DNA of 64,000 bases from Escherichia coli (GTDB taxonomy: Bacteria; Pseudomonadota; Gammaproteobacteria; Enterobacterales; Enterobacteriaceae): NCBI RefSeq assembly GCF_030013205.1, contig NZ_CP122648.1; one strand, written 5' to 3'. Made by a program: the position numbers and the translations under genes. Under the pieces are notes generated by a model. That model did no database searches and was not told where the DNA came from. It was given only the letters and a program-made list of their open reading frames with translations. Below, piece by piece: positions 2,745-57,604 of the stretch. Position 1 is the first letter of the stretch, and the number at the start of each line of letters is the position of its first letter.

Positions 2745-3590
2745 TTATTCATTTAAAGATTCAAGAAATGTCCAGCCTTTATGAGTAACATAATACATTT
2801 GTCCTTTTGCCCCTCTTTCAATCACAAAATCAAAGGATAACAGTTCGTTAAGTGCGCCCTCCCAACGGGCTACCTCTCTAGCCGAACTTCCACCAAAGGA
2901 TTGATTTCCCGCTTGAATATCCGTGCCACCTAAATGCCTTATCACATAAATTGTTCCGCTATCATCGACACATGCTAATTTCAGCAAACTGAGTGCATCG
3001 GCGGACAAATTACTTTCTGGCAAAGATTGACTTGTATTCGCATCAGGAGAATTGTTAATGGTAGATATAAGAGAAGACAAATAAGGGCTACTAGAAATAA
3101 TTATCGAAAGTTGCCTACGGACTTTTTCTTTGAAATCAGATAAGTCATTAAAAGACTCTATCAATCCCTTTTGCATGCACTCAGTTTTGAACAATTTAAG
3201 AGACTCATATTGTTCTCTATCAAGGCTTTCAGGGGCAACAGGCTTTGAGGAAAAGTAAATCATTGCCGGTTTTCCCGCATTCAAATGACGGTGGATTTCT
3301 TCGACTGTTCCGCTGGCCTCGTTCCCAGTCGGTGAGCCTAGACGAGTCCAAAACACACCGATTAATAAATCACAATCTACTAATAATCTTTGATTAATCA
3401 ACTCCTGAGGCCTAACTCCTAATTCGGGTGATGTATGAGTTTCCCATCCAATTGGTGTCAACATTACTTTTGAACGAGCTGAATTTATATCATTCCACTC
3501 ATGGATCATTTCACGAATGACTTGTCTCTCTTCAGCGACATCACCAGGAGAAGCAATCATTACAGGGATAACAGTTGCTGTGTAAGCCAT
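2745..3590 (-). CDS. hypothetical protein with DUF4062-like (TIR/flavodoxin-like) N-terminal domain and unknown C-terminal domain
   Basis: 281-aa ORF; N-terminal motif VIPVMIASPGDVAEERQVIREMI resembles the DUF4062 signature (hydrophobic strand-S-x-D-x-EER) from memory. GGAGAG RBS 7 nt upstream; start is 14 bp downstream of the recombinase stop. Confidence 0.5.
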   Translation of the reverse strand: MAYTATVIPVMIASPGDVAEERQVIREMIHEWNDINSARSKVMLTPIGWETHTSPELGVRPQELINQRLLVDCDLLIGVFWTRLGSPTGNEASGTVEEIHRHLNAGKPAMIYFSSKPVAPESLDREQYESLKLFKTECMQKGLIESFNDLSDFKEKVRRQLSIIISSSPYLSSLISTINNSPDANTSQSLPESNLSADALSLLKLACVDDSGTIYVIRHLGGTDIQAGNQSFGGSSAREVARWEGALNELLSFDFVIERGAKGQMYYVTHKGWTFLESLNE

Positions 3591-4823: not shown

Positions 4824-5828
4824 CATCGATAACTGCGTTCAGAATATGAACGCAGCCATATGATATATATGACTTTTCTTTAAAATGATGGTGTGCTAGC
4901 TTCTCTCCTGACACCTACCTCATGCGGTAAACCGGTCCGGGTAGGTGGAGATCACCGCTGTTTAGCGGAAGACGTCAGGATGGGAACTCTGCGTAACGTT
5001 GATTGTGGTAGGTAGGGCGCGCAAGCGTTTGATGCAGCCAAGCAGAGGGTGAAAGTAGCTATCGGCGGATTCTTGAGTAGCTTCTTTTGCGCATAATGCA
5101 TCTTTCAAGAAAGGTCGTCACACCACGAGGAAGACTTGATCTTCATCTGGCAAGGGGAACCGAGCAACCTACAGGCTATCTTCTCAGATGGCCTTATGGT
5201 TGATATGTCCGGCTTCCCCCCCGAGGAAGGGTTTACATCTTAAAGAACAAGTTATGTTTTAACATTTTTAACAATTACACTTCTCTGCTGTTTGGTGTCT
5301 TATGGCGTTGCCGTCAAAAGTAAACCTGCCGTTTTTACCTCTCCTGCGTAACAACCAAATACGAACCAGAAGCTGCTAACGTTCAACGTGTTCGCGGTGT
5401 AAATGCAGCCAGATAAGTTGGGAGCGAAAAAGTGGATGCCCTAGGTTTGGAAGCGCCCCTCTCAGGCATAGCGTCCGAAAATTTCCACGGCGGCAGGCTT
5501 ATCCTTATAGAGCCAAACAGACTCAAAAGTTAAGAAGCGCGGTAAAGCTTAAAGCTCGCCCAGATTTCTCATTGATTGCTCGAACTCCGCTACGCTTGTT
5601 TCAACTGGCTTCGCCAGTCACTCTATGAGAGCGCCGCGAATTCTGCACCATGATTTCGACTACCTTCTTTAAAACACTCGCCAGAGAGCCTTACAGCGCG
5701 TTTGAACCGCATATCGCAGCTTTTGCTTACGGATGACTGTCTGATTAGCAGTAGCTTCATGGCCCAGTCCGGTTTACTTTATTGCTATCAACAAGGGAGC
5801 CGTCCAGAGGCGACGCGGAGATAATGCT

Positions 5829-49532: not shown

Positions 49533-50489
49533 TCAATACCCCATATTTTTCTTCTTCTCTAACTCTTCTTTTGCGGTATCAGGCAGATAAAGGGTGGATT
49601 TGGTCAGCGTCAGCTTTTCAGGCATGGTGCCGTCTTTTTTGTATTTCTCCAGCGCGTCGAAGGCGGGACCTGCCATATTCGGCGTCAGTTCAACACTGGC
49701 GTTCGCTTCGCCATCAATCATCGCTTTGTAGATATCCGGTACGCCGTCGATAGAACCTGTCAGAATATCTTTGCCTGGTTTCAGGCCCGCTTCTTTAATT
49801 GCCTGAATTGCACCAATCACCATGTCGTCGTTATGGGCGTAAACCATGCAGATGTTTTTGCCGTTGTTTTCCGCTTTGATAAAGCTCTCCATGACTTCTT
49901 TGCCTTTACTGCGGGTGAAGTCACCTGACTGCGAGCGGATAATTTTGATATTTGGCGCATTCTTAATGGCTTCGGCAAAGCCTTTCTTACGGTCAATGGC
50001 GACGCTGGCCCCAACAGTGCCCTGCAGCTCCACCACGTTGCATGGTTTGCCATTCACTTCTTTTACCAGCCAGTCACCAATCAACTTGCCTTCGAGAATG
50101 TTGTCGGCAGTGACGGTGGTCATATAGAGAGATTTGTCTTTCACATCAATAGAACGATCGAGCAAGAAGACCGGGATTTCGGCATCTTTCGCCTCTTTTA
50201 ATACCGGTTCCCAACCAGTCGCCACCACCGGAGCGATAAAGATCGCATCCACCCCTTGCGCGACGAAGGAACGTACCGCTTTAATCTGGTTTTCCTGCTT
50301 TTGCTGACCATCGGCAATTTTCAGCGTAATTCCGCGTTTTTCGGCCTCACTTTTCGCCACATTGGTTTCTGCGGCGCGCCAGCCAGATTCCGATCCGACC
50401 TGCGAAAATCCTACGGTTAATGGAGCGGCCAACGCCATAGACGACATGGCTGCCGAGACTGCAGAGACTACAAGTAAGCGTTTCCACAT
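49533..50489 (-). CDS. ytfQ: periplasmic galactofuranose-binding protein
   Basis: 318 aa with signal peptide MWKRLLVVSAVSAAMSSMALA. Confidence 0.93.
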   Translation of the reverse strand: MWKRLLVVSAVSAAMSSMALAAPLTVGFSQVGSESGWRAAETNVAKSEAEKRGITLKIADGQQKQENQIKAVRSFVAQGVDAIFIAPVVATGWEPVLKEAKDAEIPVFLLDRSIDVKDKSLYMTTVTADNILEGKLIGDWLVKEVNGKPCNVVELQGTVGASVAIDRKKGFAEAIKNAPNIKIIRSQSGDFTRSKGKEVMESFIKAENNGKNICMVYAHNDDMVIGAIQAIKEAGLKPGKDILTGSIDGVPDIYKAMIDGEANASVELTPNMAGPAFDALEKYKKDGTMPEKLTLTKSTLYLPDTAKEELEKKKNMGY

Positions 50490-50798
50490 AGGGTTGTCCT
50501 CGTCGGGGTAATTATTATTGGTGAAAAGATGTTCGCGAAAAAACTATAGACAATTCGTTATGTAACGGATTGCGTTACATCACACTTCAAAGAAGTAAAT
50601 AAAACGTTAATCACAAGTTTGTAATCGCTTTCATCTCACTATGAAAAATGCGGCTACGGTTATGGATTTTCCTGCTCTGTATACCGTCTTAAAATTGGCG
50701 AAAAAGGAAAATGAAGACGAAAACAAGCGAAGACATTCGGCGCGAGTTGGCTATAATACTCGGCACTTGTTTGCCACATATTTTTAAAGGAAACAGAC

Positions 50799-51329
50799 AT
50801 GAGCTTACTCAACGTCCCTGCGGGTAAAGATCTGCCGGAAGACATCTACGTTGTTATTGAGATCCCGGCTAACGCAGATCCGATCAAATACGAAATCGAC
50901 AAAGAGAGCGGCGCACTGTTCGTTGACCGCTTCATGTCCACCGCGATGTTCTATCCGTGCAACTACGGTTACATCAACCACACCCTGTCTCTGGACGGTG
51001 ACCCGGTTGACGTACTGGTCCCGACTCCGTACCCGCTGCAGCCGGGTTCTGTGATCCGTTGCCGTCCGGTTGGCGTTCTGAAAATGACCGACGAAGCCGG
51101 TGAAGATGCGAAACTGATTGCTGTTCCGCACACAAAGCTGAGCAAAGAATACGATCACATTAAAGACGTTAACGATCTGCCAGAGCTGCTGAAAGCGCAG
51201 ATCGCTCACTTCTTCGAGCACTACAAAGACCTCGAAAAAGGCAAGTGGGTGAAAGTTGAAGGTTGGGAAAACGCAGAAGCCGCTAAAGCTGAAATCGTTG
51301 CTTCCTTCGAGCGCGCAAAGAATAAATAA
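50799..51329 (+). CDS. ppa: inorganic pyrophosphatase
   Basis: 176 aa; [24 protein letters not shown]...DGDPVDVLV motif. Confidence 0.97.
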
Positions 51330-51679
51330 GTTCTTCTAGCGCAATAACCCTGAACGCCGGGCTTCGGTTAGTAAGGGTTTTTTTATGCCCGCGATAAATA
51401 AACTCTCTATTCCACCATCATTATTCTCAGCGGTTGCAAGGCTTGAACGGTAAGAACAAGCAAACCCGACCACCATTTTGCTGTTCATAGCCACTTGCTG
51501 GAAGTTAGCCGACCTCACTCATACTCACCGTTCAAAGCGTGCCCCCGTTTTACCCCTGCACATTTGTGAACGCCAGCAGAGTTTTTTATGCGATTGCAGA
51601 TATGGAAAGCGGCTCGGAGAGAAAAGCAAAAGATGGAAAAGTTACAAAAAAAAATCGCGAGATACATCGCATAAAACAA

Positions 51680-51710
51680 CGCCACCCGAAGGTGGCGTGC
51701 TTTTATTATT
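51680..51710. terminator. bidirectional rho-independent terminator (ppa side / ytfP end)
   Basis: cgccacccgaaggtggcg hairpin flanked by A-run and T-run. Confidence 0.7.
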
Positions 51711-52050
51711 ACTTATCCCTGTCTAACCAGTCGCCGCTCTCAATTAGCTTTAATCCATCGACGGGTCGTTGATAAACGTACATCCATGCACTCCCGTACG
51801 GCGTCTGAATCAACTGGCGCGCGTATTCACCGCCCCTGGTGCGCAAGGCATCAAGTTCGGCCAGCGTGGCGTTGTCAATACGATAAACTTCACCGTGTAC
51901 TGTTCCGTTCCCCGGAACTGCGCCTGGATAGTGGCCCAGGCTATACAACTGGTAGTTATCGATACTGAAATCGCCCAGTAACTGGGCATTGGTCATCCAG
52001 TGACTGTTGCCTTGTTTGTGGCGTAAACTGCCGTAGACAAATATTCGCAT
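51709..52050 (-). CDS. ytfP: gamma-glutamylcyclotransferase-like protein YtfP
   Basis: 113 aa MRIFVYGSLRHKQGNSHWM... Confidence 0.9.
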   Translation of the reverse strand: MRIFVYGSLRHKQGNSHWMTNAQLLGDFSIDNYQLYSLGHYPGAVPGNGTVHGEVYRIDNATLAELDALRTRGGEYARQLIQTPYGSAWMYVYQRPVDGLKLIESGDWLDRDK

Positions 52051-52052
52051 TG

Positions 52053-57604
<5,552 letters not shown>

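Follow-up and report, generated by a model that had tools for sequence, protein, structure and literature searches.

A chpB relic between ppa and ytfP in Escherichia coli: a probable dead allele of the chpS-chpB toxin-antitoxin locus

Introduction

The chpS-chpB locus of Escherichia coli K-12 (chpBI-chpBK; b4224-b4225) is a type II toxin-antitoxin system of the MazEF/PemIK family. In strain MG1655, the gene order at this site is ytfP-chpS-chpB-ppa, with the pair lodged in an 886-bp interval, and the published arrangement places 211 bp between ytfP and chpS and 79 bp between chpB and ppa (PMC5120126, Table 1). The occupancy of the site varies within the species. In the passage that Pastorello et al. 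(2013; mBio, PMC3735183) devote to this locus, 47 genomes were divided among chpBS (53%), esiB (15%) and neither (32%), and a gain of chpBS in ST131 clade C has been reported in a preprint. More broadly, the part of a review dealing with E. coli chromosomal toxin-antitoxin systems describes them as residing at conserved locations, some of them degenerating (PMC7167474), and the decay of ccdO157 in E. coli (Mine et al. 2009) is known to us from the descriptions in that review and another (PMC2654758).

Here, we analyze the interval between ppa and ytfP in a 64,000-nucleotide stretch of E. coli DNA (hereafter the window). An initial annotation, made from the sequence alone, had noted that the chpBS pair is missing here and had proposed a presence/absence polymorphism of a chromosomal toxin-antitoxin system. 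Through comparative sequence analysis, we find it highly probable that the interval is a dead allele of the chpS-chpB locus, destroyed by two deletions and thereafter subject to neutral drift.

Organization of the ppa-ytfP interval

The interval (Table 1) measures exactly 379 bp and coincides with the ppa-ytfP intergenic region, in agreement with the approximately 380 bp given in the initial annotation, which had also correctly stated the position of ChpBS in K-12. The window is read in the orientation opposite to K-12. Both the ORF list and tblastn agree with the earlier statement that no MazF/PemK-type toxin ORF is present: nothing resembling ChpS or ChpB is encoded in 51330-51708. However, the description of the interval as holding only a terminator hairpin proved incomplete, as it contains two terminators, a relict chpS-upstream spacer and a degraded chpB fragment. 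In a three-way alignment of the window with K-12 and the chpBS-positive strain ARS-C101, all three sequences share the first 75 bp next to ppa and the last 163 bp next to ytfP. The ppa terminator is conserved relative to both strains and corresponds to the 79-bp chpB-ppa spacer of K-12, and the ytfP terminator hairpin is conserved across the Enterobacteriaceae. Because the interval is made up of the relic, its junction and the relict spacer in addition to the terminators, about 270 of its 379 bp are debris of a chpBS locus, and the ppa and ytfP terminators are the only elements in it that we predict to be still working.

Table 1. Features in and around the ppa-ytfP interval (coordinates are positions in the window)
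Feature	Position	Strand	Basis and remarks
ytfQ	49533-50489	-	
ppa (inorganic pyrophosphatase), left flank	50799-51329	+	176-aa ORF; annotated ppa in the 100%-identical strain K_EC180
S15-leader Rfam match, 3' end of ppa	51264-51320	+	16.8 bits against a gathering score of 39.5; E = 0.61
ppa-ytfP intergenic region	51330-51708		
60-aa ORF	51336-51518	-	rejected as a gene
ppa terminator	51346-51385	+	stem AACCCU...AGGGUU, then a U7 run; fold -13.5 kcal/mol, not better than shuffles
chpB relic, 130 nt	51407-51536	-	MAFFT and local alignments, tblastn, blastn
Relict chpB stop codon (TAG)	51407-51409	-	TAA in intact chpB
Best tblastn match to K-12 ChpB	51430-51513	-	
5' deletion junction, 9 nt	51537-51545	-	alignment with K-12
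Relict ytfP-chpS spacer, ~133 bp	51546-51678	-	approximately positions 31-162 of the 211-bp K-12 spacer
28-aa ORF	51588-51674	+	rejected as a gene
Weak hairpin followed by T9	51656-51671		within the relict spacer; fold no better than shuffles, not claimed as a terminator
Bidirectional ytfP terminator hairpin	51679-51698	.	ACGCCACC-CGAA-GGTGGCGT; dG -19.9 kcal/mol, z -4.5
ytfP (gamma-glutamylcyclotransferase family), right flank	51709-52050	-	ORF list; annotation in K_EC180
tamB	52053-55832	-	

Homology of the central segment to chpB

The alignment with K-12 that the initial annotation had suggested as a check shows no intact chpS or chpB in the window. The middle of the interval is nevertheless not empty: in the alignment with K-12 and ARS-C101, approximately 51405-51545 aligns to part of chpB at about 70% identity. 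The homology can be read directly at the DNA level, where the relic is 72% identical to K-12 chpB over 125 nt, at the same position and in the same orientation. Its local alignment score of 53 far exceeds that of 1,000 dinucleotide shuffles (9.6 ± 1.4, maximum 16; z ~31), and a blastn search with 51400-51545 against 28 Gb of E. coli genomes retrieved annotated chpB at 72.4% identity over 125 nt (E = 1e-7). At the protein level, the best tblastn match to K-12 ChpB in the whole window falls within this segment (E = 0.005 for the window and 5e-6 when the interval is searched alone). This match spans residues 15-42 (50% identity) and is interrupted by an in-frame stop; residues 33-48 continue in another frame. 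The same search for ChpS gave no trace in the interval, and the local DNA score against chpS equaled the shuffle mean. A chpBS remnant detected by tblastn was the very outcome that the initial annotation had named as counting against it; as it turned out, the ChpB remnant refines the proposed polymorphism without overturning it, making it one between an intact locus and an ancient relic instead of one between an inserted and an empty site.

The anatomy of the relic described here is based on MAFFT and local alignments, as global pairwise alignment with cheap gap extension scattered it into meaningless blocks. A search of its frameshift-repaired 44-aa translation against Pfam returned no PemK_toxin match and nothing at E <= 10, whereas K-12 ChpB matches PF02452 at 1e-25. 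Because the repaired peptide has no PemK_toxin match, the homology rests on DNA similarity, tblastn and synteny.

This failure of Pfam to recognize the peptide, together with an identity to chpB of 72% that is low beside flanks at 95-100%, would also be expected if another member of the MazF/PemK family had been the source, for example a paralogue or a plasmid-borne pemK that landed here. We consider such an origin highly improbable, given that the relic resembles Escherichia chpB more closely than it does the chpB of other genera: identity is 70-73% for five Escherichia lineages, and 46-60% for the chpB genes that occupy this site in Enterobacter, Lelliottia, Kluyvera, Pseudocitrobacter and strain RIT691. 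In addition, all 3,098 genomes that match at 60-80% identity do so, among the matches listed, on annotated chpB at the syntenic locus. Also retained in register are the position of the chpB stop, the 79-bp spacer that follows it and, on the other side, the spacer upstream of chpS, and every one of the 18 polarizable fixed differences discussed below falls on the relic branch, as expected for the decay of chpB itself.

Two deletions and loss of coding capacity

Both deletions are directly visible in the alignments. In the relic, chpB nt 19-139 are joined directly to nt 341-351; the first piece represents 121 nt of the 5' part, and the second the last 11 nt including the stop codon, whose position is kept even though TAA has become TAG. 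The fusion lies exactly at TGGTGG direct repeats (chpB nt 140 and 341) and corresponds to a 201-nt in-frame deletion that removed ChpB residues 48-113. On the 5' side, a deletion of approximately 290-310 bp took away the whole of chpS along with the Shine-Dalgarno sequence and a putative operator palindrome, as well as chpB codons 1-6; the junction of this deletion carries a TTTG microhomology, and TTTG occurs at intergenic positions 188 and 475 in K-12. The palindrome concerned, GAGTTATACTTTGTATAACT, is found upstream of chpS in six genera (that of K-12 and five others) and is absent from the window; its position and conservation lead us to regard it as the putative chpS operator. What survives of the frame is further damaged by in-frame stops and by two 1-nt deletions, one of them a frameshift absent from B2-type alleles, and a promoter scan of the interval found no sigma-70-like promoter.

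A functional ChpS-ChpB or other MazEF-type module would be recognized by a PF02452 toxin ORF, an upstream MazE/AbrB-type (PF04014) antitoxin ORF and a promoter/operator, and none of these three was found. In contrast, each of the three marks of a chpB pseudogene was found, namely syntenic homology, a disrupted frame, and a neutral pattern and rate of substitution, the last being read from 124 sites. On this evidence, the strain is predicted to have neither ChpB endoribonuclease activity nor ChpS.

Neutral decay and age of the relic

The differences between the relic and chpB are distributed over the three codon positions as 12:9:13, against 5:4:21 to 10:4:27 among functional orthologues, a neutral pattern observed directly in the aligned codons. 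The rate points the same way: 16 of the 124 relic sites aligned between the window and E. albertii are different (12.9%), equal to the four-fold-degenerate divergence of its neighbors (ytfP 6/46 and ppa 10/79, ~13%), although any dating rests on just these 124 aligned sites. A separate feature of the neighborhood is that, across 50799-55050, the four-fold divergence from E. albertii reaches 34% (175/507) in tamB and only ~13% in ytfP and ppa. This contrast could mean that E. coli and E. albertii swapped the ytfP-ppa region at a later date than tamB; the alternative is that synonymous sites in this region are under constraint. Two strains labeled E. coli, E69 (L009) and SCPM-O-B-8794 (L012), differ from the window by approximately 25-27% at four-fold sites in tamB, ytfP and ppa, as much as E. 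whittamii or E. albertii does, and are probably cryptic-clade Escherichia.

Direct comparison shows identical junctions in all chpBS-less alleles analyzed (the window type, RM7190, 2012C-4502, Ecol_448, E2348/69, E. albertii NBRC 107761 and SCPM-O-B-8794), which indicates that the relic arose once. Since the allele with these junctions is shared with E. albertii, the relic also predates the current E. coli and E. albertii copies. Compared with intact chpB, 18 substitutions are fixed across the relic alleles with the outgroups favoring the intact state, placing them on the relic stem before the alleles diverged. Conversely, the intact lineage has no substitution assigned to its stem, although by our own estimate a few synonymous ones would be expected there; given this, the relic stem may have been accelerated, or the outgroup polarization may be unreliable.

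These patterns also bear on the possibility that the relic and its spacer were co-opted, for instance to produce a small RNA, to encode a small protein or to regulate ppa or ytfP, which would explain why E. albertii and 43% of E. coli genomes still have them. In keeping with co-option, approximately 270 bp of non-coding relic survive despite the bacterial deletion bias, no clean deletion was seen among E. coli genomes with a match, and the interval does contain small ORFs of 60 aa (-), 28 aa (+) and 82 aa (+). However, the 60-aa and 28-aa ORFs were rejected as genes because their frames are not conserved between alleles: a 1-nt indel between the window-type and B2-type alleles shifts the frame inside the former, and the latter is stopped early in K-12. 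An Rfam scan of 50400-52200 at E <= 1 returned only the sub-threshold S15-leader match inside ppa (Table 1), which is almost certainly due to chance. Together with divergence at the local synonymous rate and a promoter scan that came back empty, these results make co-option very unlikely.

Distribution of intact and relic alleles

We surveyed 5,426 complete E. coli genomes, counting the relic at >=80% identity and chpB matches at 60-80% identity. By direct count, complete chpBS is present in 3,098 genomes (57%) and the relic in 2,324 (43%), of which 1,527 carry it at >=99% identity. Carriers of chpBS and carriers of the relic together account for all 5,422 genomes with a match, and a clean empty site was found in none of these 5,422. 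Therefore, the polymorphism proposed in the initial annotation is real and common, but the allele that it had taken as absence is a decayed copy and not an unoccupied site. Strains BL21(DE3) and C41(DE3) match the window exactly over 146 bases around the relic. The esiB gene was detected in 188 of the 5,426 genomes (3.5%).

The spacer haplotype of chpBS-positive ARS-C101 is that of the window, whereas chpBS-positive K-12 has a different one. The haplotype is thus not tied to the chpBS state, which points to recombination beside the cassette. As a separate case, E. coli HH45 (H95; NZ_CP116411.1, 4261412-4261512) matches the chpBS cassette over only 101 nt (nt 264-364, 100% identity), beneath a gene annotated as a PemK/MazF toxin, and may carry another independently damaged or rearranged chpBS allele.

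The site in other genera and its insertions

The wider comparison comprised 80 ytfP-ppa loci, a list that does not include E. fergusonii. In many Enterobacteriaceae, ytfP and ppa are separated by only ~100-170 bp containing two terminators, while others carry chpBS at the same distance of ~211 bp from ytfP, and the operon is intact in E. whittamii and several other divergent Escherichia lineages. Independent remnants were observed in Citrobacter sedlakii (a 3' chpB fragment encoding residues 63-107; L031 ~3430-3562) and, beside other cargo, in Enterobacter cloacae DSM 26481 (a 5' chpS fragment encoding residues 1-31; L037 ~5085-5168). Given these independent remnants and the presence of chpBS at the same site in other genera, the system seems to have been resident here for a long time and to have been lost on several occasions.

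The short two-terminator intervals of so many other genera might be taken to mean that E. coli ancestrally had nothing at this site and that K-12-like strains gained chpBS by horizontal insertion, in line with a published account in which toxin-antitoxin systems on chromosomes are cassettes that move horizontally and integrate between genes (Ramisetty & Santhosh 2016, as cited in PMC5120126). This naive reading is already refuted by the relic itself, and we assign it next to no probability: the window contains chpB sequence (the z and E values being those given above), and no E. coli genome with a match is free of both chpBS and the relic. The window further retains the chpS-upstream spacer, a type of sequence that was seen only in loci with a present or past chpBS and that is missing from eight short 'empty' intervals of other genera.

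Apart from the fate of chpBS, the ytfP-ppa site is an insertion hotspot, and insertions seem to have recurred at the ytfP terminator hairpin, among them esiB, a P2-like prophage and, in other genera, cargo of diverse kinds. In E. coli A37, the one esiB-positive strain examined, the 1,473-bp esiB (encoding a secretory IgA-binding protein) lies between the relic and ytfP and is bracketed by two copies of the ytfP-terminator hairpin (L089 4201-6235); the relic is still present in this strain, whose interval shares 89% identity with that of the window. The interval of the window lacks esiB, since 379 bp leave no room for it. In E. coli N50 (L090 1-4029), a P2-like prophage with genes for tail sheath, tail tube, gpD, Ogr and Hok/Gef abuts the hairpin, and the match to the window's interval is limited to its final 29 bp, beside ytfP, so that the hairpin looks like a phage attachment site. 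Unrelated cargo in other genera, located downstream of ytfP from position 3343 of the respective loci (L020, L021, L045, L049, L058, L037, L055 and L066), includes an Hcp (type VI secretion) domain protein followed by a small ORF in Salmonella arizonae, with a closely similar protein in Citrobacter youngae; a methyl-accepting chemotaxis protein in Enterobacter soli, with similar ones in Silvania and Pluralibacter; a RelE-like and HTH pair in a Pluralibacter metagenome-assembled genome; and a three-gene cluster without Pfam match in Enterobacter cloacae and E. mori. This insertion point provides useful context for pangenome annotation.

Discussion

Taken as a dead chpS-chpB allele, the interval would have originated from an ancestral Escherichia chpSB operon between ytfP and ppa. 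A deletion of ~290-310 bp, with TTTG microhomology at its junction, would have taken out chpS together with the ribosome-binding site and operator palindrome ahead of it and the opening six codons of chpB, and an in-frame deletion of 201 bp between the two TGGTGG direct repeats would have removed ChpB residues 48-113; this order of the two events is one that we infer. Since both genes would fall silent together through the 5' deletion by itself, the loss need not have been lethal. The remaining 130 nt would then have drifted neutrally, accumulating stop codons, 1-nt deletions and ~27% substitutions, to leave a relic presumably able to encode neither toxin nor antitoxin. Relic and intact alleles would since have been exchanged among strains by homologous recombination through the conserved flanks.

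It is conceivable, though on balance doubtful, that intact chpBS and the single ancient relic allele form a long-lived polymorphism spanning the genus Escherichia. The proportions of 57% and 43% in E. coli, the occurrence of the relic in E. albertii and another divergent lineage, that of the intact operon in E. whittamii and several further divergent Escherichia lineages, and at least 18 substitutions on the relic stem all suggest this; the 124-site data allow such a reading but are insufficient to establish it. If it were true, the persistence of both alleles would exceed the neutral expectation and could reflect a balance between an addictive toxin-antitoxin pair that resists recombinational replacement and the cost of its carriage, with alleles also moving between species.

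The presence polymorphism of chpBS was already published in 2013, and the relic is a small refinement of it; the finding is real and ordinary. Its practical value is small: the toxin-antitoxin set of K-12 is not applicable to this strain in experiments or annotation, and the same caveat about the absence of ChpB and ChpS extends, through their exact match, to BL21(DE3) and C41(DE3). Beyond this, identifying the chpBS-less state of E. coli as a decayed copy corrects a common reading of the locus as a site that was never occupied. The case argues against a simple recent horizontal insertion into an empty intergenic region and supports the slow decay of chromosomal toxin-antitoxin systems at fixed sites. 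No description of the chpB relic was found in the literature searched, which did not extend to the text of Fiedoruk 2015 and Ramisetty & Santhosh 2016.

Among described systems, the closest is chpS-chpB of K-12 itself, with which the window shares the site and the orientation, the upstream spacer, parts of chpB with its stop and the chpB-ppa spacer. Unlike K-12, the window lacks chpS, the operator palindrome, the chpB start codon and ChpB residues 48-113, and it carries stops and a frameshift; the locus is predicted to be non-functional. Relative to the survey of Pastorello et al. (2013), the window represents the 'neither' state, with ytfP and ppa adjacent and no chpBS or esiB ORF in the 379 bp between them. 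Against the frequencies of that study, our 5,426 genomes comprise 57% chpBS, 3.5% esiB and approximately 39% neither, the last being the relic carriers minus the esiB carriers. The passage on this locus in that study makes no mention of chpB remnants in the esiB or 'neither' states, whereas we find the relic in the 'neither' state and in the one esiB-positive strain examined. As portrayed in the reviews, ccdO157 is likewise a chromosomal type II system at a fixed intergenic site with intact and degenerate alleles within the species, and the likeness fits a drift to inactivity, although ccdO157 belongs to the CcdAB family and not to MazEF. In contrast to ccdO157 as described there, a single relic allele with fixed junctions that is shared with E. 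albertii indicates one old decay event instead of many recent ones.
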